Shown here piece after piece: positions 942 to 30,487 of a stretch of DNA of 32,000 bases. Below the pieces are notes generated by a model. It had not been told where the DNA came from. It made no database searches and saw only the letters and a list, made by a program, of their open reading frames with translations. The stretch is from the NCBI RefSeq assembly GCF_000025945.1, contig NC_006138.1, positions 2,310,001 to 2,342,000 of the forward strand, in the 5' to 3' direction. A program made the translations under genes and the position numbers. Numbering within the stretch: position 1 is the first letter of the stretch; the number at the start of each line of letters is the position of its first letter. Source of the stretch: Desulfotalea psychrophila LSv54. Lineage in GTDB: Bacteria; Desulfobacterota; Desulfobulbia; Desulfobulbales; Desulfocapsaceae.

Positions 942-1913
942 ATGTTTTCAACTGATTTATATGATAGCGTTTTACTTGCTCCAGCTACACAAGGTGCTGA
1001 CCATTTACATGTCATATCTGGATATGCAACTGCGGCAATGGCGTTTCGCCATATCAGGCATGTAAATAAACAAGGGCATGACATAAAGGTAGATTTAATA
1101 GTAGGTATGTGCCCTAATGATGGCCTGTCGATTAGTAATCACAACGGTTTTAAAAAACTTGTTGAAGATGATTTTGCTGGTAAATTCGAATGCTCTTATG
1201 TGATGGCATCACCTGCTATTCATTCAAAAGTTTATGTTTGGACAAAAGATAATAAACCTGTATTTGGTTTTGCTGGTTCTGCCAATTATACTCAAAATGC
1301 TTTTTTTTCCAAACAGCGTGAAGCAGTAGCCTCATGTGATCCTAACATCGCTTACGACTATTTCCAAAATTTACTCTCTGACACCATATGTTGCACACAC
1401 AATAATGTTGAAAACTCAATACAGTTATACAATGAAAATTACTCGAAAAAGAAGCTACAACTTGTGGAGCAAGGAGCGTTTGAGGAAACAACACCTGACC
1501 ATATAAAGGGGTTACCTAAAATAACAATCTCATTACTTGCAAATAATGGCACTTTGCCGCCACGTTCTGGATTAAACTGGGGACAACGCCCAGAACAACA
1601 CAGAGCGCCAAACCAAGCCTATATAAGATTACCTTCTACCGTTTACCGGACAGATTTTTTCCCGGAGAAGACAATTCAATTTACAGTTTTAACAGACGAT
1701 GGAGAAACAATAATGTGTACTCGTGCCCAAGAGAATGGGAAAGCAATACATAGTCCCCACAACAACAGTTTAATTGGGAAATATTTTAGGAATAGACTTG
1801 GATTAACTTCCGGTGTTTTGGTTACAAAAAACGATTTGACATCATACGGTCGTAGCGATATTACCTTTTATAAAATTGATGACGAAACATATTATATGGA
1901 TTTTTCAGTTTAG
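942..1913 (+). CDS. PLD-superfamily type II restriction endonuclease (NgoFVII/BfiI-like) with C-terminal B3-like DNA-binding domain
   Basis: 323-aa ORF with an AAAGGA RBS upstream. A single HxK PLD motif (AIHSKVYVWTKD) lies in the N-terminal half. The C-terminal LNWGQR..AYIRLP..FTVLTDDGE..YGRSDITFYKIDD pattern matches the B3-like domain of NgoFVII/BfiI-type enzymes as I recall it. Confidence 0.7.
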   Translation: MFSTDLYDSVLLAPATQGADHLHVISGYATAAMAFRHIRHVNKQGHDIKVDLIVGMCPNDGLSISNHNGFKKLVEDDFAGKFECSYVMASPAIHSKVYVWTKDNKPVFGFAGSANYTQNAFFSKQREAVASCDPNIAYDYFQNLLSDTICCTHNNVENSIQLYNENYSKKKLQLVEQGAFEETTPDHIKGLPKITISLLANNGTLPPRSGLNWGQRPEQHRAPNQAYIRLPSTVYRTDFFPEKTIQFTVLTDDGETIMCTRAQENGKAIHSPHNNSLIGKYFRNRLGLTSGVLVTKNDLTSYGRSDITFYKIDDETYYMDFSV

Positions 1914-1956
1914 CTGTGAATGGACAACTTTCCCGAGTTTTATTGCGTAAATCATG

Positions 1957-2117
1957 GGTCATGATGCCAAAACGTTGAAGTAATAGTATAGTGTATTCTT
2001 TTTAATGTTTTGATATAGCTACAGCAAAAATACCTTGTCGGTTTTGTGATAGCATTGAGTGACCGGTATTTTTACAGAAAGAGAGTTTTTCTAAAACAAC
2101 AAATTGGCATAATGACC
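1957..2117 (+). mobile_element. IS1-family deletion derivative (MITE-like), copy B
   Basis: GGTCATGATGCCAAAACGTTG at 1957 and CAACAAATTGGCATAATGACC ending at 2117 are 21-nt inverted repeats (17 of 21 nt complementary, one mismatch and a 3-nt bubble). The left 45 nt equal the reverse complement of 9118-9156. The right 55 nt match copy A. Confidence 0.75.
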
Positions 2118-2151
2118 ATTTCTTAAAACTAGTCGTTGTCACCACATTCAA

Positions 2152-2865
2152 TTGCAATATCAATACCTATTGAAGAGAAACTTGAAAAAGAACTGGAGCG
2201 AAGAAGAGTTGCGTGCCTCTGTTGATGCATATGTCGAAATGCATAGCCTCGAAGCTAGAGGCAAGCCTTTTGTAAAAAAAGCCTACTACGAGACCCTCGC
2301 CAATACATTCGGTCGCACCGTGAAGTCATACGAGTACCGCATGCAAAACATCTCTTACGTCTACTCGCTTCAAGGTCGTCAGTGGGTGTCGGGGCTAAAA
2401 CCAGCCCGGAATGTCGGTGTCAATGTGATTCAGATGCTCGAAGACCTAATTGCCAAGAGTGAAGGACAACATCTAGTTGCAATCGCTTACTTTAATGCGG
2501 CAGTAGAAAAACTCAGAAAAAGACCTCCATCTTTACCTCCAAAGGGCAATAAAAAGCCAGCGTCATTTCTGTCTTCGGGCACACGATTTGTCCGAGATCC
2601 GGAAGTTGTTGCATGGGTTCTCGCTGAAGCGGCAGGCCACTGTGAATGTTGCGAGTCATCAGCACCATTTTTGCGAGAAGACGGGTCACCATTTTTAGAA
2701 GTTCATCACGTCCAGCATTTAGCAGATCATGGTGAAGATACAATAAACAATGCAGTAGCACTCTGCCCCAATTGTCACAGCGAACTGCACTATGGTATGG
2801 GCAAAAAAGAACTGGCAGAGGAGCTACGGGCGAAGATCACCAGGCTTCAAGTGACCGGCGCGTAA
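2152..2865 (+). CDS. McrA-like HNH endonuclease (COG3183-type predicted restriction endonuclease)
   Basis: The C-terminus CECCESSAPF..PFLEVHHVQHLADHGEDTINNAVALCPNCHSELHYG is the classic McrA-type HNH motif. An N-terminal NWSEEELRASVDAYVEM module is present. The start is uncertain: TTG at 2152 with no good RBS. Confidence 0.8.
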   Translation: MQYQYLLKRNLKKNWSEEELRASVDAYVEMHSLEARGKPFVKKAYYETLANTFGRTVKSYEYRMQNISYVYSLQGRQWVSGLKPARNVGVNVIQMLEDLIAKSEGQHLVAIAYFNAAVEKLRKRPPSLPPKGNKKPASFLSSGTRFVRDPEVVAWVLAEAAGHCECCESSAPFLREDGSPFLEVHHVQHLADHGEDTINNAVALCPNCHSELHYGMGKKELAEELRAKITRLQVTGA

Positions 2866-2904
2866 TACGTATAACAAGTTGTTGCAGACATAAAACTTAT
2901 ATGC

Positions 2905-2937
2905 GAAGTAGCTGAACAACAGATTGGCATCACGACC
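2905..2937 (+). repeat. Isolated IS1-family IRR-type end directly downstream of the HNH gene
   Basis: GCTGAACAACAGATTGGCATCACGACC matches the IRR-type consensus. The same HNH-3'-end plus IRR junction recurs at 28025-28203. Confidence 0.65.
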
Positions 2938-3535
2938 TGCTTTCCATTCTCTCAAGTCACCTTTTTGTAATGTTGTTACATCATCATTTTGTAGGTATCC
3001 ACCCTCCAGATTAAGAGCATGCTGTCCCGATGATATCGTAATGTACTAAATTTCAATCAATTAATTCTCCACGGAAAACGTCATCGAACCTCATATTTTA
3101 ATACTCTGCCCCCTGCCTTGTCGAAATTTCCTCAATATTCTCTAGGTGCTACAAAGAAAATCACCAAGCTATGTTCGTAACTTCTATTTATACATAACAA
3201 TAAAAAACCTTGTCAGTTTTACGGCAACGAAAGAGGTCTTGCTCTTATTCTTTAGAAACAGCCACATATGAGCGTAAGGGCTTTACATTGTTACCTTTTT
3301 ATTCAGTTTTATTGTGTGTAAAAGATATGGCAAGAGAATCAATAACTTTTTGGCCTAATTGCAGGTTGTTATCAACACAAGTACCACTTCAGTTACAGAT
3401 TGATCTAGCAACCTATTGCGAAAACGATTAAAAAGAAGCTTCTGCGTCAAGAGCAGAAATTTTTTTTCACCAATACTGAAAGCACCTTTTAAAGAGACTT
3501 TCATCACAGATAGATAAGCATACAAAGAATAAATA

Positions 3536-4618
3536 ATGAAATTTGAACTTGCGGAACTGTTTTGCGGCCCTGGAGGAATTGCCCTGGGGGCACAACTAGC
3601 TGGTGTAGTGTACAATAACAGAAACAATGAGTCTTTCTCAATTGCCCCCAGCTGGGCAACTGATTATGATGAAGCCACCTGTCGAACTTACGCTCTTAAT
3701 ATCCATAACTCTAACGAGCTTGATCTTGACACTGTAGTTTGTCAAGATGTCCGAGAGTTAGATATAGAGGCCTTGCGTCCTCGGCAAGCGTTGGCGTTTG
3801 GTTTTCCTTGCAATGACTTTAGCAGTGTTGGTGAGACAAAAGGGCTAAATGGACAATTTGGTCCTCTTTATAAATATGGTGTTAAGTACCTTCAAACACA
3901 TCAACCACAATGGTTTGTTGCAGAAAATGTTAGTGGCTTATCTCATGCCAATGGAGGAAAAGCTTTTAAACTTATCCTGCGTGAGATGGAAGATGCTGGA
4001 TACAACATCACTCCTCACCTATACAAATTTGAAGAGTATGGTGTACCTCAAGCACGCCACCGAATAATTATTGTTGGAATCAGGAAAGATCTAAATACAG
4101 AATTTAAGGTGCCTGCCCCCACAACTCCTAATCAATATAAATCTTCTGGGGAAGCTTTAACATGTCCCCCAATTCCTGAGGACGCGCCAAATCAAGAAAG
4201 AACAAGGCAGTCTCAGCAGGTTGTTGAACGCTTAAATTACATAAGACCTGGCGACAATGCTTGGTCTGAAGATATTCCTGAGCATCTTAGGTTAAATGTC
4301 AAAGGAGCAAGACTTAGTAATATTTACAAAAGACTTAACCCAAACAAACCAGCTTACACAGTCACGGGCAGTGGAGGCGGTGGAACCCATATGTATCACT
4401 GGGAAGAGCCAAGGGCTTTAACAAACAGAGAAAGAGCGAGGTTGCAAACATTCCCTGACAACTATCGATTTTGTGGAAATAAAGAAAGTGCCCGGAAACA
4501 AATAGGTATGGCAGTTCCACCTCAAGGGGTAGCTGTGATTTTAAATGCAATACTTAAGAGTTTTGCGGGGAAAGATTACAATAATGTTCCAAGCAATGTG
4601 CTAATGCGTTTTTCATAG
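3536..4618 (+). CDS. dcm: DNA (cytosine-5)-methyltransferase
   Basis: Canonical C5-MTase motifs occur in order: LFCGPGG (I), GFPCNDFS (IV, catalytic PC), AENV (VI), QARHR (VIII), GMAVPP (X). Confidence 0.95.
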   Translation: MKFELAELFCGPGGIALGAQLAGVVYNNRNNESFSIAPSWATDYDEATCRTYALNIHNSNELDLDTVVCQDVRELDIEALRPRQALAFGFPCNDFSSVGETKGLNGQFGPLYKYGVKYLQTHQPQWFVAENVSGLSHANGGKAFKLILREMEDAGYNITPHLYKFEEYGVPQARHRIIIVGIRKDLNTEFKVPAPTTPNQYKSSGEALTCPPIPEDAPNQERTRQSQQVVERLNYIRPGDNAWSEDIPEHLRLNVKGARLSNIYKRLNPNKPAYTVTGSGGGGTHMYHWEEPRALTNRERARLQTFPDNYRFCGNKESARKQIGMAVPPQGVAVILNAILKSFAGKDYNNVPSNVLMRFS

Positions 4619-4636
4619 ACAAAAAAGTTTTTTAGC

Positions 4637-4883
4637 CCCCAATAGAGCCTGGCCGTGCCAAAGTGGCTTGAACTGGGGGCATAGCGTTGTTAACGGCCGC
4701 CATAGAAAATCAAACCAAGCTTATCTTTCAAACAGAAAAAAGGCGAGAACAGAAAGGGTTTTGCCAGAGTATCAGCTTACCGTCACTCTTCTTGCAGACG
4801 ATGGAAAGGTTATGAGCTGTACGGCACAACAGGAAGACAGAAAGGCTGTTTCTACGAATAAAGGAAAAATTCTGCTAGAATAG
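4637..4883 (+). pseudogene. Remnant of an NgoFVII-like endonuclease C-terminal (B3-like) domain, lacking the catalytic domain
   Basis: The reading frame opens right after a TAG, 19 nt past the dcm stop. PGRAKVALNWGH..NQAYL..LTVTLLADDGKVMSCTAQQEDRKAV parallels residues about 206-275 of ORF 942-1913 (PPRSGLNWGQ..NQAYI..FTVLTDDGETIMCTRAQENGKAI). No PLD half and no credible start. Confidence 0.6.
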
Positions 4884-5311
4884 ATTATCTTATAACAAAT
4901 TACTTCTTTGGCAACTCAGCTTAATGAGCTGACATTGATTTCCCCACCGTCCCTGCACCTTGACCAGGGAGCGATCACACTGTTGCCTAGTCTTTGTAAC
5001 AGGCACTATATTTAACCTGTGTCTAAAGCTAAAAAACATTCACAATAGGCATTCTCTAATTTTTTGTTGTGGCTGAAATGTAGATTTGTTAGTTTTGTCA
5101 AATAGTATGCTCGACCCTTGGCACCTTGACAATGGGTATGGACAGCTTACCGGATGTTTTCCTTATTGTTACTAGCATGGTTAGTGATATCAGTTGTTTT
5201 TTCTAATAGGGTAAAAAATGGCCCATTTTTCTTTAATCTAGATAAGAAATAAAGTCTATTTCGAAAGAAAATTTCCAGCTAGAAACCTTCAAAAAAGGTC
5301 TTCTGCATAGG

Positions 5312-6889
5312 ATGACAAAAGAACAAGCCCTCCTCGCCCTGGCGAAAAAGAGACAGACCACTAGGTACGACGGTTACACCTCTATCGGTGACTACAATGG
5401 TGGTGTTTGGGAGTGTGATTATGTCTCCCCCTACAGTAAATCCGCCCATAATGTTGATGCCAGGGTCATGGCCGTTTTGCAAGACTGGTGCTCATCCGAT
5501 GCTTTTACAGGTGACATTTGTGTGGAAGATTTGAGCCTTGGCTATGATAGCACGGCAAAAACTAATATTAGCTTAATGACCCTGCTCCAGAACCATTTTG
5601 GCCTCTCCCTGCAGGATACTTATACGACCAATCTGTTTCCCTATATCAAGCCTGGTGCTATGAACGCACTTATCTCCATTAAAGATCTTACTCGCGCCGC
5701 CAAAGATTTTACCCTACCCATGGTGGAAATTATTCAGCCACAGCTGGTTATCTGCTTTGGCAAAAATACCTTTAACGTCATGCGTAGGGCCTGCGGTATG
5801 GGGGATACCAATAATGTGGCAGAGGCCATCGATTCAAGTTTTCAATATCGGGGTGCCACTCTTTGCTGTCAATCCCATCCGGGGCAGTTGGGTAAAAACA
5901 ATAGAAATAAGGGTGGAGTCGATAGGGCATCCGCCGACTGGCAACGGCTAAAGACCGTATTGGACGAGAATAAAATAGAGAAACCCTCTTCAGACGTTCT
6001 CTCACCATCCACCAATAAAACAAACATCATGACTGCTAAAAAACATACAGGATTTATTCAGTGGTTCGGCCCCCTATTAAATGCCCTGCGGGACCTGGGT
6101 GACTCTGGCAGGCCCAGGGAGGTCTCTGCGAAAATAGCCGAGAACCTCAAATTACCCGATACCATCCTCGATGCAAGCTTCAAGAGTGGTACACAGAAAT
6201 TCCACAATCAGGTCTGTTGGGCCCGGCAATATCTGGTATGGGCAGGGTTCCTCGACTCGTCCATCCATGGTACCTGGAAACTGACTGAAAAGGGGCAGGG
6301 GGCACACCTCAGCGTAGATGAAGCCGCGGCTCTTACTCGAAAGTGGAAGGCTATCCATCAGGAAAGACGAAAACAGCGGCCATCTGCAGAGCATCCCGAG
6401 GCGGAAGAGATAGAGAACTTCCCCCAACCGGAAAATGATCTTCTTACCGTGCTACGTTCCATCTCCCCCACAGGTTTTGAAAAGGTTACCAGAGAGCTGT
6501 TGCGAGAATCAGGTTTTGAGAAAGTTGAAATCACAGGTGGTTCAGCAGATGAAGGTATAGATGGCTATGGTGTCCTGGCGCTGAACCCCTTTGTTAGCTT
6601 CAAGGTGATCTTTCAGTGTAAGCGCTATCAGGAGGGTAATAATGTTGGCCGAGTCCAGGTGGCCGATCTTCGTAACTCCATGTTGGGCCGTGCTGAAAAG
6701 GGTATCATCATCACCACCTCAACATTTACTCAGGCAGCTCTTAAGGAAGCAAACCGAGACGGTGCTGCCACCATAGAACTCGTCGATGGCGAAAAACTGG
6801 TAGAGATGTTCCAGAAGGTACAACTCGGCCTCACTCAGAGGGTTGTCTACGATATCGATCAAGAATATTTTGCCAAATATGCGGAGTGA
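5312..6889 (+). CDS. Fusion protein: N-terminal uracil-DNA-glycosylase-superfamily-like domain plus full Mrr (Mrr_N winged helix plus Mrr_cat PD-(D/E)xK nuclease)
   Basis: The N-terminal part carries UDG-fold landmarks in order: VMAVLQDW, TNLFPYIKPG, LVICFGKNTF, CCQSHPGQLG. The middle (LLNALRDLGDSGRPREVSAKIAE..WARQYLVWAGFLD..GTWKLTEKG) reads as Mrr_N. The C-terminus (FEKVTRELLRESGF..DEGIDGYG..FQCKRY..GIIITTSTFTQAA..IELVDGEKLVEMF) reads as Mrr_cat. Confidence 0.7.
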   Translation: MTKEQALLALAKKRQTTRYDGYTSIGDYNGGVWECDYVSPYSKSAHNVDARVMAVLQDWCSSDAFTGDICVEDLSLGYDSTAKTNISLMTLLQNHFGLSLQDTYTTNLFPYIKPGAMNALISIKDLTRAAKDFTLPMVEIIQPQLVICFGKNTFNVMRRACGMGDTNNVAEAIDSSFQYRGATLCCQSHPGQLGKNNRNKGGVDRASADWQRLKTVLDENKIEKPSSDVLSPSTNKTNIMTAKKHTGFIQWFGPLLNALRDLGDSGRPREVSAKIAENLKLPDTILDASFKSGTQKFHNQVCWARQYLVWAGFLDSSIHGTWKLTEKGQGAHLSVDEAAALTRKWKAIHQERRKQRPSAEHPEAEEIENFPQPENDLLTVLRSISPTGFEKVTRELLRESGFEKVEITGGSADEGIDGYGVLALNPFVSFKVIFQCKRYQEGNNVGRVQVADLRNSMLGRAEKGIIITTSTFTQAALKEANRDGAATIELVDGEKLVEMFQKVQLGLTQRVVYDIDQEYFAKYAE

Positions 6890-9277: not shown

Positions 9278-10402
9278 GTGTTCATGAAAACATTCATCTG
9301 GGACAAAACATTTACAACAGGAATTAGCAAGATTGATGAACAACACCATCATATTGTCGAAGTTATAAATAAATTCGTCTTTGCCTTTAGCGAAAACACC
9401 ATAGATAAGGACTTCATCTTGCACGTCTCCAAAGAACTTATGGACTATGCGCAAAATCATTTTAAAACAGAAGAAAAGATCATGCTGGCCGAGAAGTTAG
9501 ATCCACTTTTCATTTCTCAACATATAGACACACACAATGCTTTTAGCCAACAAATAAAAATTTTTACCACCAATCCTGATTTTACAAACCATAATTTTTT
9601 TCGTCAAATACTAGCTTTTCTCATCCATTGGCTGGATGACCATATACTCAATATTGATCAAAGCATGGCCAGGCAGATAACCGCCATAAAAAACGGTATA
9701 TCTCCAGCACTCGCCTATCGACAGGAGCAAGAGCAGAACACACGGCACAACGAACCACTTCTGCTGGCACTCAACCAACTCTTTGAAACCGTCTCCCTGC
9801 GCAACAACGAACTCAGCCAACTGAACCGAAATCTGGAACAGCAGGTACAGGAGCGAACGACAGAACTGCGAAAGGCCAACAGAGACCTGGAAAAAATATC
9901 CCAAACCGATCCCCTCACGGAACTTGCCAATAGACGTTATGCCATGGATCAAATACACCTGCTCTGGGACAAGTCCAAAATCGCCTCCCACCCTCTCTGT
10001 TGTTTTATAATAGATGTGGATTGCTTTAAGGAGGTAAATGACACCTATGGCCACGATGCAGGCGATCTTGTCCTCAAAAATATTGCCAAGATACTGGTTG
10101 ACTCGGTCCGGGCCAGAGATATTGTCTGCCGACTTGGCGGGGATGAATTTTTTATCATCTGTCCCAGGACACCTCTTAAGGAGGGGATGGAAATTGCCAG
10201 GAGAATCAGGAAAAATGTATCTCAGACAAAAACAGTCTTTGGCAACAATTATTGGCAGGGCTCCGTCAGCATCGGGGTAGCCTGTAATAACGAAGAAATC
10301 AACAAGGTCAGCGATCTGCTTAAGGCAGCAGATGAAGGTGCTTATATGGCAAAAAACGATGGTAGAAACTGCGTCCGCTCAAAAATGATAAAAATACGAT
10401 GA
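9278..10402 (+). CDS. Hemerythrin-like domain / coiled coil / GGDEF diguanylate cyclase
   Basis: N-terminal bacteriohemerythrin pattern (WDKTFTTGISKIDEQHHHIVEVINKF, HFKTEEKIM, HWLDDHILNID). A coiled-coil linker follows. GGDEF domain with RLGGDEFFII and DAGD. An alternative ATG start lies at 9284. Confidence 0.9.
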   Translation: MFMKTFIWDKTFTTGISKIDEQHHHIVEVINKFVFAFSENTIDKDFILHVSKELMDYAQNHFKTEEKIMLAEKLDPLFISQHIDTHNAFSQQIKIFTTNPDFTNHNFFRQILAFLIHWLDDHILNIDQSMARQITAIKNGISPALAYRQEQEQNTRHNEPLLLALNQLFETVSLRNNELSQLNRNLEQQVQERTTELRKANRDLEKISQTDPLTELANRRYAMDQIHLLWDKSKIASHPLCCFIIDVDCFKEVNDTYGHDAGDLVLKNIAKILVDSVRARDIVCRLGGDEFFIICPRTPLKEGMEIARRIRKNVSQTKTVFGNNYWQGSVSIGVACNNEEINKVSDLLKAADEGAYMAKNDGRNCVRSKMIKIR

Positions 10403-10752: not shown

Positions 10753-11973
10753 TTATAGTTGTTCGTTTTCCCCAGATACATCCTCCTTCTCACCCGCCTC
10801 GTGCATTGCCTCAATAGCTCTCTCCACACTTTTGCGGACAGGGTCCACCGTCAGATAGGCATAGTGTGCCGTGGCCTGCTCTGACTTATGTCCCAGGGAA
10901 GCACCAATTATCTTTGTACTCGATCCTGATATTGCCTGCCAACTCCCCAATGTCCTGCGGATATCATGAAAACGATAACTTGTTGGTAATTCGGCATCTG
11001 CTAAGAATTTTTTCCATAGTCGCCGGGGTTCATTTATATGTCCTGTCTTACTTTTATGAGAGATAAAAACAAAGTCACCACCATACCTCTCCTTTCTCTT
11101 CGCAAGAATAGTGATAGCCTGACTGGCCAGAGGGATAACCATCGGCTCTGCATTTTTACTCTTATCAGCGGGTATAATCCATAACTGAGTTTTCAGGTCA
11201 ATTTCAGACCAGCGCATAGATCGAATATTTGCTTGACGAGCACCAGTATAAAGAGAGAGCAGGAGGTAATCTCGTAGGAGCTCATCTGTTGCTTCATGGT
11301 CAAGGCGGCTGAAGAATTGCTTTAAATGGTCCGAACCTAAAAACTCCGTTCGTTTTTTTTCCTTATACCGTTGCACCTTGCTGCATGGATTATCGATATT
11401 TGCAGCAGCCTTTCCAAAAATGGAGGAGAGTGTAACAAAAGCTCTATGTGCCATAGCGGTTGACAGACAGTCATTTCCTCGCTGTTTCTTCTGTTTAAGA
11501 AGAGCATTTCTCCAGGTCAGAATCACATCGGGAGTAATTTCACTAAGCTTTTTTTTCCCTAACCGTCGTTTTATATAAAGCTCATAGCGTCTCACCTCTT
11601 CAGGCCATCTCTTGATATTCAGCTTTGCATGGGTATTAAGCCAAATGTCAAAAACATCGTCGAGTGACTGCTCGGCCCGTTCCTGCTTTTTTCTCTCCTG
11701 TACATCAATACCTTTGGCAATATCCGACACTCGGGCAACCACAATGTCTCTGGCGTCGTTGATGGAAAGTTCAGGAAATTCACCCAAGTTTTCTTGCACC
11801 TCTTTTTTCTTGGAAGTGTCCCAGATACGAGCCCTCAATATCTTGCGGCCGTTTGCCTTCACTCTCAACATCAAACCCTTCATACCTGTGTCGAAAAAAT
11901 GAATATCCTTGCCCGTGGTATTCTGTATTTTTACCAATCTCGTCTTAGTAAAGTTAAATTTATTATCACTCAT
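10753..11973 (-). CDS. int: Tyrosine recombinase, P4-type genomic-island integrase
   Basis: 406 aa. The N-terminal arm-type region (LMLRVKANGRKILRARIW) reads like DUF4102. Catalytic residues: TGARQANI (R), HDIRRT (HxxR), GHKSEQATAHYAY (H..Y). Confidence 0.9.
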   Translation of the reverse strand: MSDNKFNFTKTRLVKIQNTTGKDIHFFDTGMKGLMLRVKANGRKILRARIWDTSKKKEVQENLGEFPELSINDARDIVVARVSDIAKGIDVQERKKQERAEQSLDDVFDIWLNTHAKLNIKRWPEEVRRYELYIKRRLGKKKLSEITPDVILTWRNALLKQKKQRGNDCLSTAMAHRAFVTLSSIFGKAAANIDNPCSKVQRYKEKKRTEFLGSDHLKQFFSRLDHEATDELLRDYLLLSLYTGARQANIRSMRWSEIDLKTQLWIIPADKSKNAEPMVIPLASQAITILAKRKERYGGDFVFISHKSKTGHINEPRRLWKKFLADAELPTSYRFHDIRRTLGSWQAISGSSTKIIGASLGHKSEQATAHYAYLTVDPVRKSVERAIEAMHEAGEKEDVSGENEQL

Positions 11974-15465: not shown

Positions 15466-15843
15466 ATGAACAACCTAAAAAAATTTTGTGCTATCTGCTC
15501 CGAGGAACCAAAAAAAGTAGCAATAAACAGACAAGTTTCTTCAGACGCAAGTAACATATTAGGATTGCACACAAAAGAAGCAATAAAAGCCTTTGTTGGT
15601 GATGGTGGCATCGAAACACCAACATACATCAACTCTAAAATTTGGGAAAAAAACCCAAACCCAGAGAACAAAATGACTGTTTATGCTTACAGTTTCACTT
15701 CTTTGCACGAACAATTATATTTGGCTTTTTTCCACAATTACCTAACTGGTTTCTGGGTACTAAAATCATTGCATAAAACTAACAATCCCAACCCTACGCT
15801 TGGAAGTATATTTGATCAGAAAATGTTAAACCAAAACTTTTAA
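15466..15843 (+). CDS. Putative MqsR-like toxin
   Basis: 125 aa, located upstream of a zinc-ribbon/HTH protein (toxin-first order as in mqsRA). SDASNILGLHTKEAIKAF and VYAYSFTSLHEQLYLAFFHNYLTGFWVLKSLHK resemble the MqsR ..LYLKITV..LIVSFKEK C-terminus as recalled. The similarity is weak. Confidence 0.45.
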   Translation: MNNLKKFCAICSEEPKKVAINRQVSSDASNILGLHTKEAIKAFVGDGGIETPTYINSKIWEKNPNPENKMTVYAYSFTSLHEQLYLAFFHNYLTGFWVLKSLHKTNNPNPTLGSIFDQKMLNQNF

Positions 15844-15860
15844 GATCAGGAGAAATAGCT

Positions 15861-16481
15861 ATGACACAACTTACATGCCCCGCTTGCGGTTCTCATAACA
15901 TTACTCAACAAAAAGAAATAAAAAAAATATTCACCGATCACCTAGATAAAGAAACACATATAGAGACACTCTACGAAGAATGTCAAGAATGTGGAATGGA
16001 CGGAGAATTTTCTATAGATAATGATGAAATAATAAACAATGCCCTGGCTGATACTAGATCAGAAACTATATCTAAAATACTCACTGAACTATCAAATCAC
16101 CATAGCTTAGCTGGGATAGAAAGATCTCTTGATCTACCACAACGCACACTTAGCAAATGGAAAAACGGGACCAAGCCAACTCGATCCGGCACAACACTTG
16201 TAAAGTTAATTGCCATATTCCCTTGGTTAATTAAAATTGCACAAAGCAAATATAATCCTGAAAAAATGGCTGCAATATTTGGTCATGCTTGCGTCGATTA
16301 CCACCTAAATATGTCCAATGACAAACCTCCTTTCAATTCATTAAATTTTATTGGGGTTCAACAAAACAATATAAATATTAGCTTTACTGTTAATATTCAT
16401 AACGATTCAACAACACCAAAAGAATCAAAAAGAATCAACCAAACACAATCTGAACTTACTGTAAAAAGTTCTTTATCATAA
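15861..16481 (+). CDS. MqsA-like antitoxin: N-terminal zinc ribbon plus HTH, with a 70-aa C-terminal extension
   Basis: CPACGS..(32 aa)..CQECG zinc ribbon. LAGIERSLDLPQRTLSKWKNGTKPTRSGTTLVKLIAIFPWLIKIA parallels MqsA LTQKEAAEIFGGGVNAFSRYEKGNAQPHPSTIKLLRVLDKHPELL. An AGGAG RBS is present. Confidence 0.6.
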   Translation: MTQLTCPACGSHNITQQKEIKKIFTDHLDKETHIETLYEECQECGMDGEFSIDNDEIINNALADTRSETISKILTELSNHHSLAGIERSLDLPQRTLSKWKNGTKPTRSGTTLVKLIAIFPWLIKIAQSKYNPEKMAAIFGHACVDYHLNMSNDKPPFNSLNFIGVQQNNINISFTVNIHNDSTTPKESKRINQTQSELTVKSSLS

Positions 16482-16976: not shown

Positions 16977-17299
16977 TCTAAATAAAAGCTAAAGTTTTTT
17001 TTAGTAAAAACAAATAATAATCCAGAGCCTTATTAAAAACGGAAAAAAACAAAACTGCACAAATACATACAGAGAAAATTCAAGATACTAGCAGTCCCTG
17101 CAACAAATACCTCGCGGCCAATGTGCTTACGCTCTGAAAGAGGATCTCATGAAAAATGCACCTTGTCTCTCACCTTTTTTTCCTGTATATCTAGATAAAT
17201 ATAAATTTTTTATATGTAAAAAAAGATGGCAAATGCCTGATTCTCTTTGAGAGGTTTTTCTCATTTTTTCATGATAGACGGATAAAATATTACCGATAG

Positions 17300-18130
17300 G
17301 TGATATCCGTAGATTTTCCCCATCTTACGCCAATGTCAAAGCTTATGAGCAAGGTATCACCGTTAGAAACGATAAAAAAAATCCTATTTTTCGATACATT
17401 CCCTTTTCTTTGTCGGTTAATTGCAACCACTCTAATTTTATTGGCTTTTTATTCTATTGGAATCCCGCCAGAAAAGGATTTGAATCCATCAGCAATAATG
17501 CTGCTGGTTTTTTCAGCATTTTTCTTCCTTTTGCCAATCGCGAAAAAAATGAGCATTGGCAGGTTGCTTACCTATGAAAAACAAGTCGAAAAAGTCAAAA
17601 CAGAGGTAAGTGAATTTAAAACTGAGACAAGAGAGTTTCTCGGTATTTATAGTAACATGATCACCGCCATTTCGAATACCGTAAATCAAACTGTTAATGT
17701 TAATCTTCCAGGTCAAGCTGAGGCACAGCAAGCGAAAGAAGACCTTGATGCCTCTATTGAAAAACCAGAAGAGGCATCCACTATTGAAAAAAGTGTTTCC
17801 ACTTTTATCAGGGAGGCAGACGGAGACTTCAATTTTGCGCTTGCGAAACTTCGCATGGAAATTGAAAAATCTTTGCGTGAAGCTCTCAGAAAACGAACTA
17901 TTACAGCTGACCCACATGCAATGAAAGGGACGTTCCTATCTGCTAGACAGCTATTTAGGCAATTCACGATCCAATACCCAAAGTACGAAAATATGCGTAG
18001 CTCTTTCGATTACATTCTGAAGGTTTGTAATGCGGCAATACATGGACAGCAAGTGTCAGAGAGGTATGCCCATGAGGCAATTTATATGGGCACAAGAATG
18101 TTGAAAGAGATAAAAAGTGCCAGCGAGTAG
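17300..18130 (+). CDS. Membrane-anchored coiled-coil protein with a DUF4145-like C-terminal domain
   Basis: Two or three N-terminal TM segments (LCRLIATTLILLAFYSIGI, AIMLLVFSAFFFLLPIA) and a coiled coil. The C-terminal LAKLRMEIEKSLREAL..FDYILKVCNAAIHGQQVSERYAHEAIYMGTRMLKEI resembles the DUF4145 pattern (lR..gN.aaH). The start is uncertain: GTG at 17300 or ATG at 17333. Confidence 0.55.
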   Translation: MISVDFPHLTPMSKLMSKVSPLETIKKILFFDTFPFLCRLIATTLILLAFYSIGIPPEKDLNPSAIMLLVFSAFFFLLPIAKKMSIGRLLTYEKQVEKVKTEVSEFKTETREFLGIYSNMITAISNTVNQTVNVNLPGQAEAQQAKEDLDASIEKPEEASTIEKSVSTFIREADGDFNFALAKLRMEIEKSLREALRKRTITADPHAMKGTFLSARQLFRQFTIQYPKYENMRSSFDYILKVCNAAIHGQQVSERYAHEAIYMGTRMLKEIKSASE

Positions 18131-18234
18131 AAGTTTTAACAAGCGAAAGCACGCGGATCAATTTTTCGCTGTGTGCCCAATTTGCCCAGTGGTGCCGGTG
18201 CTCGACCTAAAAGTATCATATTTCAGGAGCAGTT

Positions 18235-19339
18235 ATGTCTATTTCAAAAGAATTATTTAAAATCGCTAATAATTTAGGGGCATATAGTGATTATAAGACT
18301 CCACAGATTCAAAACTTAATTGACTCAGCTACCGCTGTTGGTAAGTCATGGAGTGGGTCTTGGTTGGGGTATCATTCCAGAGTATATTATACTGCCTTTG
18401 AAACGCCACCTCCTGGGGCAGTATTTAGTGCAGAATGGGGATTAGAAAATAACTTTTCTGGGGGGTCAAGAGGTGCTTGGCTTGAGTATAGTTTTGATGA
18501 CGTGGTGAGTTATATTAATCAACAAGCTGGTGCCCCCAATACTGATAAATTATCCAGTGATGGAGACCAAGCAACGTTACTGTATGAAGATTCAAAATCT
18601 GATTTACTAGTCAATAATTTACTCGAATTTGCCAGGAGAAAAAGATAGTTTCCTCCAAGGGCTTGTTGATAAAATAGAATCTGAAAAAATACTTTCCGAA
18701 GATGATTTTCTGAAATATCAACGGCCAACAGGCCAAATAATGTCAAGAGATTCTTTAGCCGTACATTGCGGGTTAGTTGTTCCTCCTCATATTGCTGTAC
18801 TATCTAAAGCATACGCAACTATGCAACCCTTTCAATCATGTTCGAACCTTAAAAAAACAACATTAAAAATAGCTAATCACATGCGTAACTTAGAAAAAAA
18901 ATCAGTGGTGGAAGATCGCATTGGAACAAATATTTTTATTGGGCATGGTCGCTCTCATTATTGGAGAGAACTCAAAGATTTTGTAAGTGAGAGGCTCCAT
19001 TTACCATGGGATGAGTTTAATAGAGTCCCTGTTGCAGGAGTCACAAATATAACTCGACTTGCACAAATGCTTGATCAATCTTGTATTGCATTTTTGGTTA
19101 TGACTGCTGAAGATGAGCAACAAGATGGTAATATGCACGCTCGAATGAATGTAGTTCATGAAGTAGGATTGTTCCAAGGTCGGCTTGGCTTTGAACGAGC
19201 CATCGTCGTATTAGAAGAAGGTTGTGAGGAATTTTCAAATATTCAAGGTTTAGGTCAAATAAGGTTTCCCAAGGGAAATATTTCGGCAATTTTTGATGAA
19301 ATACGACAAATTTTAGAACGAGAGAAAATCGTTGATTAA
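18235..19339 (+). CDS. TIR-like (Cap12/PycTIR-type, Pfam PF10137 as recalled) effector with an unknown N-terminal domain. It is split into two ORFs by a 1-nt shift in an A5 run.
   Basis: ORFs 18235-18648 and 18629-19339 overlap by 20 nt. Removing one A from AAAAA at 18639-18643 fuses them (..EFARRK-DSFLQGL..). The C-terminus IFIGHGRSHYWRELKDF..AFLVMTAEDE..HARMNVVHEVGLFQGRLGFERAIVVLEEGCEEFSNIQGLGQIRF matches the vFIvHG..AivLlTpDD..RaRQNVifElGyf.GkLGr.rV..L pattern. Confidence 0.7.
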
Positions 19340-19604
19340 GTGCTTCATAGTAAAACTAATTCGAACGTCACAAAGCTGCTCCGCTCATTTCTTATTACGC
19401 AACTTTGTGACGCCGATTATTTAAAAGTTAAACAATCGTATTGCTCCTCTTCTGGAAATGCCGACAACCCTCTGCTATTTTTTGTCCCTGCCCCTTTCTG
19501 GCCCAAAAGCATTGCTAGAGAGCCAACCTTGGTGTTACAATGAAACAGCAAAATGCTGTAAAGGCAGTGAAAATGGCATAATTTGAAGTCAAAGAAGAAA
19601 AAAT

Positions 19605-20085
19605 ATGGCTGACTACACAAAACTGGATTATTTGAAAAAAAACCTCGATTCTTACCGCCCTTTGCCTGCCGAGGTAGTCTCAAACCTTCATGAAGATCTT
19701 GTCCTGCGCTGGACCTGGTGCCATAGAGGGTAACAGCCTGACCCTGAAAGAGACTAAAGTTGTCTTGGAAGGTATTGCTGTTGGTGGCAAGACCATACGT
19801 GAACATCTTGAGGCGATCAACCACCGGGAGGCCATCTACTTTGTCGAAGAGTTGGTGGAGAAAGGGCAGATCCTCTCAGAGTGCCAGATCAAATCCATCC
19901 ACCAGTTGGTATTGAAAAATATTGATGATAAGCATGCTGGAACCTATAGAAAAAACAATGTTATTATCTCCAGTACAGATCATCATCTACCAGATGCAAT
20001 ACACTTCTCGCCCTTCTACCCCCTTCTCCGTTTACCTGGTGGCCCTATAGGTGGCAGAGTGTTTACAAAAGTCAAACCTCTTTGA
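19605..20085 (+). pseudogene. Fic-domain protein, frameshifted near codon 38 and truncated before the HPFxxGNGR motif
   Basis: MADYTKLDYLKKNLDSYRPLPAEVVSNLHEDLVLRWTW, then a stop. A second frame continues AIEGNSLTLKETKVVLEGIAVGGKTIREHLEAINHREA..HAGTYRKNNVIIS. No Fic active-site motif follows. Confidence 0.75.
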
Positions 20086-22394: not shown

Positions 22395-22697
22395 ATGGGT
22401 ATGGAGTATGAAATTGATCGTACAAAAAAATTTGATAAGTGGCTGAAAAAGCTTAAAGAAACTGAAGCTAAACTCACTATCCTTGCAAGGATAGACAGAG
22501 TGAAGATTGGTCATTTCGGTGACCAAAAACAGCTTGAAGAAAATTTTTTCGAAATCCGTCTTTTTACAGGCCCAGGCTATAGAATCTATTACACCATCAG
22601 AGGTGGCAAGATTGTTTTGTTGCTTTTGGCAGGTGATAAAAGTAGCCAGAAAAAAGATATAAAGAAGGCCAAAGAGCTTATTAAAAAGCTTGAATAA
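22395..22697 (+). CDS. RelE/ParE-superfamily addiction-module killer protein (HigB-like, COG3657-type)
   Basis: YEIDRTKKFDKWLKKLKE..ARIDRVKIGHFGDQKQLEENFFEIRLFTGPGYRIYYTIRGGKIVLLLLAGDKSSQKKDIKKAKEL is the typical family pattern. It sits upstream of its antidote. Confidence 0.85.
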   Translation: MGMEYEIDRTKKFDKWLKKLKETEAKLTILARIDRVKIGHFGDQKQLEENFFEIRLFTGPGYRIYYTIRGGKIVLLLLAGDKSSQKKDIKKAKELIKKLE

Positions 22698-22709
22698 GAG
22701 GTTAATGCT

Positions 22710-22985
22710 ATGGCTAAAACAGCTTCCTACAATCCATTTGACTATCTCACCACAGAAGAAGAGATACGAACATACCTTGATAATGCCTCCAGAGATGAAG
22801 ACCCAAGAATTTTTGTTATAGCTCTTGGCTATCTGGCAAAAAAACGTGGCATGAAAGCAACCGCTAAAAAAGTTGGTGTAAGCCGTGAGAGTCTTTACAA
22901 ATCTCTTTCTGGAAAAGGTAACCCAAAATATGACACAATCCGCAAAGTGACCCAAGCGCTGGGCTACCAAGCACGGGTAAAGTGA
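22710..22985 (+). CDS. Addiction-module antidote protein (HigA-family HTH, COG3636-type)
   Basis: FDYLTTEEEIRTYLDNASRDEDPRIFVIALGYLAKKRGMKATAKKVGVSRESLYKSLSGKGNPKYDTIRKVTQALG is the typical family pattern. It starts 12 nt after the toxin stop. Confidence 0.85.
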   Translation: MAKTASYNPFDYLTTEEEIRTYLDNASRDEDPRIFVIALGYLAKKRGMKATAKKVGVSRESLYKSLSGKGNPKYDTIRKVTQALGYQARVK

Positions 22986-23645: not shown

Positions 23646-24281
23646 GTGAAGAAAAAAATAGATATTAGCAATTATAAACGAAAAGGAATGTTTGAAGCTT
23701 TTAAAGATCGTGATATGCCATATCTATCAACAACCAGCCATGTGGACATAAAAAATCTAAAGCCATTTATAGATAATCACAAATATGGATTTTTTATATC
23801 TATTAGTTATTTAATATCAAAAGCAGTAAACCTTATCCCAGAATTGAGGCATAGGATAATTGATGGTGAATTGTACGAGTATGACAGGGTGGACCCTGGC
23901 TATACAGTCTTACTAGAAGATGAAACGTTCTCATTTTGCGACTCTTGTTACTTCGAAGATTTTCAAAAATACAGTGAATATTCCAGCACTAAGATAAATG
24001 AGGTTAAAGCAAAACCTGACAATGGTGTTGGCGAGAAACACCATATGTTTTTTATTACGAACATACCTTGGTTCAGTTTCACTTCGATTGTTCACCCGCA
24101 TGATAAAGTGTATGCATCGATTCCGATAATTACTATCGGGAAATATTTTAAACAGGGAGATCAGCTGTTGCTACCTATTGGGATTCAAGTTCATCATGGA
24201 GTAGTAGATGGGATTCATCTAGGTAAATTTTATACCCACTTATCAAATTTTTGTGCCGATCCAGCTTTATGGTTGGTCTAA
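23646..24281 (+). CDS. cat: Chloramphenicol O-acetyltransferase, classical type A CAT family
   Basis: 211 aa. FFITNIPWFSFTSIVHP..IPIITIGKYFKQGDQLLLPIGIQVHHGVVDGIHLGKFY aligns with CAT [47 protein letters not shown], including the catalytic His. GTG start with GGAG 8 nt upstream. Confidence 0.9.
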   Translation: MKKKIDISNYKRKGMFEAFKDRDMPYLSTTSHVDIKNLKPFIDNHKYGFFISISYLISKAVNLIPELRHRIIDGELYEYDRVDPGYTVLLEDETFSFCDSCYFEDFQKYSEYSSTKINEVKAKPDNGVGEKHHMFFITNIPWFSFTSIVHPHDKVYASIPIITIGKYFKQGDQLLLPIGIQVHHGVVDGIHLGKFYTHLSNFCADPALWLV

Positions 24282-29507: not shown

Positions 29508-30487
29508 ATGAAAAATGAATCTGACTTCGCAAGACTCACTCCTGATTTAATTCTTGAAGCAATCGAATCCGCTTTGGGCAAGAGAATGTCCGGTTTGACT
29601 CTCCACTACCAAGCTATATAAACCGTGTCTATGAACTTCAGACCATGGATGAAACACGGATTATTGCTAAATTTTATAGACCAGGCAGATGGAGTATTGA
29701 TGCTTTAAGAGATGAGCATCGATTTATGGTGGATTGTGCCACAGCGGAAATCCCCGTAGTATTGCCGCTGATGTTGGCCAATGGAGAGACAATTGATGAA
29801 GTGGATGGATTTTATTTTTCCCTGTTTCCTAAAAAAGCAGGACGTGAGTTCGAAGTAACCTGCGATGAAGACTGGCGTAGAATAGGTCAACTTATTGGCA
29901 GGATTCATCTTGTCGGTAGCACTAAAACCGCTGATGATCGGATTGTTCTCCATCCTTCACAATCCACGGTAGCTGACATCGCGCAGCTTGTTGGTGCTGG
30001 ATTTGTTAGCACAACGCATCTAGACGAATTTATTGAGATTACCGGAAAAATTGTGGAGATCGCCGAGAGGGGATTCAAGGATATTGAGTTGATCCGAATT
30101 CATAGTGATTGTCATAGTAGGAACATTCTGAATCGCCCCGAAGAAGGTCTCATGATTATTGATTTTGATGACATGGTGACAGGTCCTCCCGTTCAAGATA
30201 TTTGGCTTTTATTGCATGATTATGCTGATAGATCCCAAAGGGAGATAAATCTTATATTAGAAGGGTATGAACAGTTTCGGGAATTTGATGATAGGAGCTT
30301 GAAGCTGATCGAACCGTTGCGTGCGATGAGAATGCTCCATCACTTAGCCTGGTGCAGCAAACAGGTTAATGATTTTCAGTTTAATAAAAACTTTCCAGAT
30401 TGGGGAAGCGATGCTTTTTGGCAAAGAGAAATATCGGATCTTCGGATTCAGTTGCAGATTATTCTAGAAAAGCACTCCACTGGTTAA
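29508..30487 (+). pseudogene. srkA: SrkA/RdoA (YihE)-like Ser/Thr protein kinase, N-terminus displaced by a 1-nt frameshift near 29598-29606
   Basis: MKNESDFARLTPDLILEAIESALGKRMSGLT in one frame. Then ..PLPSYINRVYELQTMDETRIIAKFYRPGRWS..IHSDCHSRNIL..IDFDDMVTGPPVQDIWLL..IEPLRAMRMLHHLAW in another. This parallels E. coli YihE LTPLNSYENRVYQFQ..VVKFYRPERW..LHGDCHAGNIL..DLDDARNGPAVQDLWML..IEPLRAMR. Confidence 0.8.

Follow-up and report, generated by a model that had tools for sequence, protein, structure and literature searches.

The window considered here is a stretch of 32,000 nt from Desulfotalea psychrophila LSv54. At positions 17300-19339 it carries a membrane-protein gene and, directly downstream, a gene whose product ends in a TIR-like domain. 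A first-pass annotation, made from the letters alone, had listed open reading frames (ORFs) at 17300-18130, 18235-18648 and 18629-19339, all of which we recovered, and had proposed that they form a two-gene defence module. The features on which the argument depends are as follows.

17300..18130, + strand: upstream membrane-protein gene; the ORF opens at GTG 17300, and ATG 17345 (261 aa) is favoured by homologs and by the RefSeq model
18235..19339, + strand: TIR-family gene with a +1 frameshift; 367-aa product comprising an uncharacterised N-terminal domain, then a Cap12/PycTIR-type TIR-like domain
18235..18919, + strand: N-terminal domain (N-domain), residues 1-228, alpha-rich, with invariant WSGSWLGYHS..YY...PPPGA.FS.EWG, SRD and PPH
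18639..18643, + strand: A5 homopolymer in which one surplus A destroys the reading frame
18929..19267, + strand: TIR-like domain CAP12-PCTIR_TIR (PF10137), residues 232-344; Pfam E=2.6e-20
19142..19162, + strand: presumed NAD+ hydrolase (NADase) active-site motif R303-M-N305-V-V-H-E309, which aligns with SfSTING R78-D-N80-V-V-F-E84 (HMMER)

One gene split by a frameshift at 18235-19339

Shortening the A5 run at 18639-18643 by one A joined ORFs 18235-18648 and 18629-19339 into a single frame. Both the run and the fusion had been anticipated by the first-pass annotation; the product is 367 aa long, not 366 as it had counted. The repaired junction (...EFARRKDSFLQGLVDKIE) is in register with the family consensus ...DKFL..LVEKIE, the removal bringing back ...RRKDSFLQGLVDKIE in line with DKFL..LVEKIE. 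When the repaired protein was searched against 5.8 billion proteins, we found hundreds of intact homologs of 365-370 aa that covered 99-100% of its length at 55-68% identity (closest, 68%), in Vibrio, Pectobacterium, Dickeya, Klebsiella, Methylomonas, Sulfurovum, Cyanobium and others. Of the 82 columns invariant in 31 homologs, the repaired protein retains 80, differing at the other two by L to V and V to I; of the 137 columns conserved at ≥90% it retains 133. A Shine-Dalgarno sequence (AGGAG) lies 7 nt 5' of ATG 18235, and nothing comparable precedes TTG 18629. Since full-length homologs are collinear with it, its invariant columns are kept and a start-site signal is seen only at 18235, the 236-aa ORF 18629-19339 of public records is, on sequence grounds, a frameshift artefact. 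Its product is 100% identical to a D. psychrophila database entry, and so is the upstream protein.

To survey the family in genomes, we collected 558 tblastn-confirmed stretches, from many phyla, out of one-genome-per-species contigs representing 185,579 species, and kept 80 full-length loci. At all 80 of these the best tblastn segment was unbroken over 93-100% of the query. Frameshifting is thus not a property of the family: programmed frameshifting was rejected as an explanation, and the conserved lesion that the first-pass annotation had named as a sign of a dead gene did not appear. The interval 18235-19339 is a single gene, inactivated or misread through one extra A in the A5 run, and the full protein cannot be made from the D. 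psychrophila copy as sequenced.

Whether the extra A is real is a question separate from that of mechanism, and its likelihood is not to be added to those of the functional readings below. If it were a sequencing error in the assembly, the gene would be intact and functional in D. psychrophila. We consider this unlikely, whilst giving it some weight. The lesion is a single additional base within a homopolymer, and all other conserved positions are intact at the counts given above; on the other side, five As make a short run for such an error, neighbouring genes on the same island show visible decay (a Fic fragment and many short ORFs at 12-23 kb), and the nearest sequence available for comparison is a homolog at only 68% identity.

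Domain architecture and relation to known TIR proteins

The C-terminal domain belongs, by sequence comparison, to the PF10137 TIR-like domain family, in agreement with the Cap12/PycTIR-type assignment of the first-pass annotation; the motifs it had picked out (FIGHG, AFLVMTAEDE, ARMNVVHEVGLFQGRLGFERAIVV and SNIQGLGQIRF) are all present in the translation of 18629-19339. Membership follows from matches to sequence models and solved structures, together with conserved R303, N305 and E309. The Pfam hidden Markov model (HMM) scored 73 bits against a gathering cut-off of 24.7, with residues 232-344 matching profile positions 1-117 of 119. The PADLOC models that match the TIR part are the 'Effector TIR' of the cyclic oligonucleotide-based antiphage signalling system (CBASS) (1.7e-12), PDC-S35 and PycTIR. 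A family profile run against PDB sequences returned Cap12 (9lmq, 2.4e-5; 7un8) and PycTIR (8jsj, 0.029) as the sole solved relatives, and Foldseek with an AlphaFold2 (AF2) model gave TIR-STING 9lmq (E=1e-4) and, more weakly (0.005-0.08), 7un8, SARM1 and SPARTA TIR. In SfSTING, E84 is catalytic and R78/N80 bind substrate (PMC9402430). The catalytic Glu and substrate-binding Arg/Asn of the PF10137 family are therefore present here, with R303/N305/E309 corresponding to SfSTING R78/N80/E84, and all three are invariant in 32 sequences of the TIR family. From these residues, the domain is probably an NADase.

The remainder of the protein is a different matter. The first-pass annotation had found nothing recognisable in the N-terminal part of ~220 aa, and neither did we: PF10137 was the only Pfam family in the whole protein, and the N-domain had no Pfam, NCBIfam, PADLOC or PHROGs match. 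For the N-domain, a profile search of PDB sequences gave spurious matches only (E>0.1). Foldseek against PDB and BFVD returned only TIR-type or insignificant matches, from a whole-protein model in which a weak N-domain-only match could be outranked; no structural likeness to SAVED, CARF, STING, SLOG or CNBD was seen. The AF2 model of the whole repaired protein has a mean predicted local distance difference test score (pLDDT) of 79.7, with residues 1-220 mostly at 80-96. In it the N-domain (residues 1-228) is predicted to be mainly helical with a small beta element, and a helix of ~45 residues is predicted to connect it to the TIR domain. Its invariant residues are W39-S48, Y51, Y52, P58-A62, E67-G69, W82, E84, S170-D172 and P183-H185.

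An N-domain-only profile search of 1.84 billion proteins gave 1,191 representative clusters, among them fusions to other effector domains. In the best 150 of the 1,191, a PF10137-type TIR was present in 83, ~50 were truncated metagenomic fragments and 16 had another C-terminal part. These other parts were a Ser/Thr kinase, GGDEF, Hypoth_Ymh (TIGR02391), a canonical TIR_2, a DpnII/MboI-type restriction endonuclease, and 1-4 transmembrane helices or unknown domains. On this sequence evidence, the N-domain is a portable module of no known family. By analogy with the effectors of CBASS, Pycsar and Thoeris, a conserved N-terminal module joined to interchangeable toxic C-termini would be the sensor-effector pattern of conflict systems.

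Two characterised proteins offer the nearest comparisons. PycTIR (e.g. PDB 8jsj) has its parts in the same order, with the sensor domain at the N-terminus and a TIR NADase of the PF10137 type at the C-terminus, and the TIR domains are homologous. However, the N-domain here is not a cyclic-nucleotide-binding domain (no cNMP_binding match at E≤1; an alpha-rich model), the PADLOC PycTIR model matches residues 265-358 only, and no PycC pyrimidine cyclase is adjacent in the window or at the 80 loci. Cap12/TIR-STING (7un8, 9lmq) provides the closest solved structures of the TIR domain, and its active-site R78/N80/E84 are kept as R303/N305/E309. In Cap12, though, the order is TIR then STING, which is reversed here with no STING domain; the NCBIfam Cap12 equivalogs scored 36 and 30 bits against a cut-off of 450, on the TIR part only; the Foldseek alignment was limited to ~135-155 TIR columns; and no CD-NTase neighbours the gene in the window, nor is one conserved at the 80 loci. 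Given the low equivalog score, the lack of a STING or CNBD domain and the absence of a cyclase neighbour, the repaired protein as a whole is neither Cap12 nor PycTIR. The PADLOC candidate single-gene system PDC-S35 is also a stand-alone PF10137 protein and matches at E=3e-11 to 8e-8, but its models are 231-278 aa long without the 225-aa N-domain, and the match joins residues 200-360 (linker and TIR) to C-terminal parts of the models. The phage family phrog_16442 likewise matches the TIR part only.

The parallel with PycTIR (sensor plus TIR) and with Cap12 raises a further reading, in which the ligand of the N-domain is a nucleotide second messenger, produced either by the phage or by a synthase (CBASS, Pycsar, Thoeris or cyclic oligoadenylate-like) whose gene lies elsewhere in the genome, and the protein is the effector arm of a split system. 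The invariant aromatic and polar residues W39-S48, Y51, Y52, E67-G69, S170-D172 and P183-H185 suggest a conserved pocket, and the N-domain occurs with transmembrane, nuclease, HEPN-type and TIR effectors, as do CBASS and Pycsar receptors. Yet neither the 5-kb flanks of the 80 loci nor the nearest flanking ORFs of 35 loci have a conserved gene for a cyclase, CD-NTase or TIR synthase, and Foldseek showed no similarity of the N-domain to SAVED, CARF, STING, SLOG or CNBD. We regard such a receptor as improbable.

The upstream gene and the proposed two-gene module

The upstream family comprises 147 homologs of ~255 aa, a length that supports the ATG 17345 start. As the first-pass annotation had supposed, the product looks like a membrane protein with a coiled coil: the AF2 model has hydrophobic helices at 33-53 and 63-82, a long helix at 86-128 (coiled coil) and a helical C-terminal domain, which carries the motifs ALAKLRME.E and CNAAIHGQ. 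No Pfam or PADLOC match was obtained for it. The further suggestion that its C-terminus resembles DUF4145 (PF13643) did not hold at significance, neither the protein nor 37 homologs having any Pfam match at E≤1, and DUF4145 was rejected as an assignment. An hhalign comparison with a genuine DUF4145 protein (from locus L083) gave a probability of 0.2%. Foldseek against PDB returned nothing significant, the best weak matches of the compact domain being HEPN toxins (E>2).

A larger group of membrane proteins is made up of distant relatives whose similarity (24-33% identity) is confined to the C-terminal domain. In 5 of 9 of these, DUF4145 was the best Pfam match, below threshold (15-20 bits against 23.1; E=8e-4 to 0.02), with HepT-like or HEPN_Swt1 as weaker matches. 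The segment ...ILKVCNAAIHG resembles ...RKIGNIGAH of the true DUF4145 protein, but the DUF4145 motif Arg aligns with Leu in the upstream protein, which, unlike DUF4145, is membrane-anchored. A remote relationship to DUF4145 or to the HEPN clan is possible, through a weak and transitive resemblance. A large soil and sediment metagenome group of 270-320 aa (L130-L159; e.g. L130:2290-3123 and L140:7809-8636) has an N-terminal transmembrane region, a GDFEAEIDP motif and a DUF4145-like ALAKLRIE.E...ICNRAIHGE domain. These proteins also have a conserved additional C-terminal domain (YRLTTVIPYV...LEGY.EYAEFIV), which is absent from the upstream protein of the window.

In D. psychrophila the two genes are on the same strand, separated by a gap of 104 bp with no terminator-like site in between, and both lie on one low-GC island. 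These are the grounds for reading the membrane/coiled-coil protein and the TIR-like protein as one abortive-infection module. The first-pass annotation had itself listed a lack of co-occurrence in other genomes among the results that would refute the module, and on this point the module failed. tblastn with the upstream protein found the upstream gene in 0 of the 80 TIR-family loci within 8 kb (nothing below E=0.6), and the TIR-like gene was found within 8 kb in 0 of 80 metagenomic loci of the upstream family. Nor does either family have a conserved neighbour. All-against-all clustering of ORFs within 5 kb of the 80 TIR-family loci recovered only antisense shadow ORFs, with no neighbouring gene cluster common to more than 5 of the 80; ORF clustering of 36 full-length upstream-family loci plus the window likewise gave none. 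The abundance of the families is also very unequal, with 147 matches for the upstream family against thousands for the TIR family. The upstream gene thus encodes an independent, solitary membrane protein outside the TIR system. We consider a two-gene module to be very improbable indeed; that they adjoin in D. psychrophila is best explained by two independent cargo genes having come to lie on one island. That the locus holds one frameshifted gene, solitary and without a partner, is by our estimate highly probable. With no two-gene system here, cloning 17200-19400 as a 'module' would be misdirected.

Island setting, distribution and likely role

The other features of the window are listed below.

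942-1913: NgoFVII-family phospholipase D-type (PLD) restriction enzyme, left of the integrase
2152-2865: HNH protein, left of the integrase
3536-4618: C5 cytosine methylase, left of the integrase
5312-6889: Mrr_N+Mrr_cat protein, which also matches PADLOC PDC-S02 and type IV mREase models
9278-10402: hemerythrin-GGDEF diguanylate cyclase gene, 8 kb from the TIR-like gene and beyond the integrase
10753-11973, - strand: tyrosine integrase with an Arm-DNA-binding domain, left of the gene pair
15861-16481: MqsA-like gene; a 206-aa zinc-ribbon and helix-turn-helix protein with sub-threshold MqsA-family and Lar matches
19690-20085: truncated Fic-family gene; a 131-aa ORF that matches FICD residues 130-220 (E=1e-7) and lacks the Fic motif region
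22395-22985: HigB/Gp49-like gene and antidote, right of the gene pair

The GC content of the stretch with both genes is 33-41%; the genome average is ~47%. To the right of the integrase, the DNA at ~12-23 kb is low in GC and crowded with short ORFs, which suggests a decaying integrated island; no tRNA that could serve as its attachment site was found in the window. The toxin-antitoxin modules and Fic debris reported around the pair by the first-pass annotation are there, as the HigB/Gp49 gene with its antidote, the MqsA-like gene and the Fic fragment. A 125-aa ORF without a family match precedes the MqsA-like gene, and the two together (15466-16481) may be an MqsRA-like toxin-antitoxin pair. 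Restriction-type genes cluster at 942-6889. On the right side of the window, 23646-24281 and 29645-30487 hold genes of the chloramphenicol-acetyltransferase family and the APH-type phosphotransferase family, respectively.

The first-pass annotation was also right that no cyclase adjoins the pair: none lies near 17-20 kb, and the only cyclase-type gene among the ORFs scanned is the hemerythrin-GGDEF gene. Cyclic di-GMP activates TIR-STING; nothing here connects the gene at 9278-10402 with the TIR-like gene.

Elsewhere, the 80 TIR-family loci are spread over Gamma- and Alphaproteobacteria, Campylobacterota, Planctomycetota, Acidobacteriota, Verrucomicrobiota, Poribacteria and one Methanotrichaceae archaeon. 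When the four ORFs closest to the gene were tallied at 35 loci, the most frequent domains were N6_N4 DNA methylase (5/140), DEAD/ResIII helicases, PIN_12, IS66 transposase and phage integrase. In E. coli we found the gene in 1 of 5,426 complete genomes, that of O55:H7 DEC5E (L166:8910-10016), where an inovirus-like prophage (zonular occludens toxin, II/X replication protein) carries it as terminal cargo, beside hipBA. A Klebsiella variicola plasmid copy adjoins two further TIR genes and the genes of a TPR protein and a DUF4231 protein; Tn3 transposase and resolvase genes are found within a few kb. Plasmid copies are rare (7 records), and the N-domain was found in viral contigs at only 4 loci; the upstream gene was in no viral contig. 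The distribution of the TIR family is thus that of an accessory, horizontally moving gene, sporadic on mobile or variable DNA. In a Poribacteria metagenome-assembled genome (L019:8001-9640), a TIR-only partial copy (query residues 230-366, 69% identity) lies immediately 5' of the full-length gene, a tandem partial duplication. A literature search on PF10137, TIR-like, PDC-S35, COG4271 and Cap12-like proteins found no paper for this sensor-TIR family. A domain-centric screen excluded single-gene systems (PMC13069673).

We favour, by a modest measure when the defence mechanism is included, the reading of the gene as a copy, disrupted by a frameshift, of a solitary single-protein sensor-effector, an abortive-infection-type NADase, on a low-GC integrase-linked island. 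The abortive-infection-type role proposed by the first-pass annotation is accordingly still the most plausible one, as the property of one protein and not of a two-gene system. The mechanism can be modelled on relatives. In PycTIR, the TIR NADase becomes active when a ligand causes the sensor domain to oligomerise (PMC11224242), and in Cap12/TIR-STING ligand-driven oligomerisation of the fused sensor domain turns it on (PMC9402430). By analogy, the N-domain would act as a sensor or regulator, and a cue, either an infection-associated ligand or a protein, would drive its oligomerisation. This would assemble the TIR domains and complete an NADase site from R303/N305/E309, and the resulting depletion of NAD+ would stop growth of the infected cell, that is, abortive infection.

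A non-immune role is the other functional reading to be weighed: the N-domain would be a general sensor of housekeeping signalling, and the TIR-like domain would process a nucleotide or NAD-related metabolite in normal physiology. Such a role would suit the N-domain fusions to GGDEF and Ser/Thr kinase and the ordinary metabolic genes that flank many loci, and the PF10137-related superfamily includes non-immune nucleoside-processing enzymes, e.g. MilB (PMC9402430). It sits badly with the extremely patchy distribution, exemplified by the single E. coli genome, with carriage by a prophage and, in the plasmid case, close to transposon genes, and with NADase active-site residues that are conserved; moreover, the alternative fusion partners are classic toxic effectors (restriction endonuclease, Hypoth_Ymh, TIR_2, transmembrane helices). 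We think it a rather poor prospect.

Several points nevertheless weigh against the sensor-effector NADase. As the D. psychrophila copy is broken, no statement on function in that organism is possible. The kinase and GGDEF fusions of the N-domain would fit a general signalling sensor too, and many neighbours at the 35 loci are ordinary housekeeping or metabolic genes. The match to PADLOC models, whether of known or of candidate defence systems, is confined to the TIR part, over which AF2 confidence is only moderate (pLDDT 50-87). Lastly, the N-domain is conserved across phyla, unlike fast-evolving sensors of phage proteins.

Such strong conservation across phyla makes a small, conserved ligand a likelier cue than a phage protein that varies. 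With no linked synthase, the source of this ligand would have to be the phage, general metabolism or a system encoded at another locus. A broader proposal follows, which we offer tentatively and would not yet bet on. The N-domain may be an undescribed, widespread sensor of single-protein immune systems that works without a dedicated signal synthase, senses a conserved infection-associated small molecule or state, and switches at least six kinds of effector (PF10137 TIR, TIR_2, DpnII/MboI-type nuclease, Hypoth_Ymh/HEPN-type, membrane helices, and kinase or GGDEF); on that view, the gene of D. psychrophila would be one member that has recently been broken.

For this window, the outcome is mostly corrective: a frameshifted stand-alone gene and no new two-gene system, at a locus that is itself of modest interest. 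The family is another matter. It pairs a well-understood killing domain, the Cap12/PycTIR-type NADase, with a conserved and structurally unmatched N-domain that lacks a partner gene and recurs in combination with nucleases, membrane effectors and other TIRs. The activator of the N-domain, once identified, would reveal how such an NADase can be switched on when it has no cyclase of its own. Convenient experimental material is offered by intact homologs in E. coli (e.g. WP_001419848.1 of O55:H7 DEC5E), Klebsiella (e.g. WP_228298560.1 of K. variicola), Proteus and Pectobacterium, and the family with its portable N-domain is a reasonable candidate for experiments.

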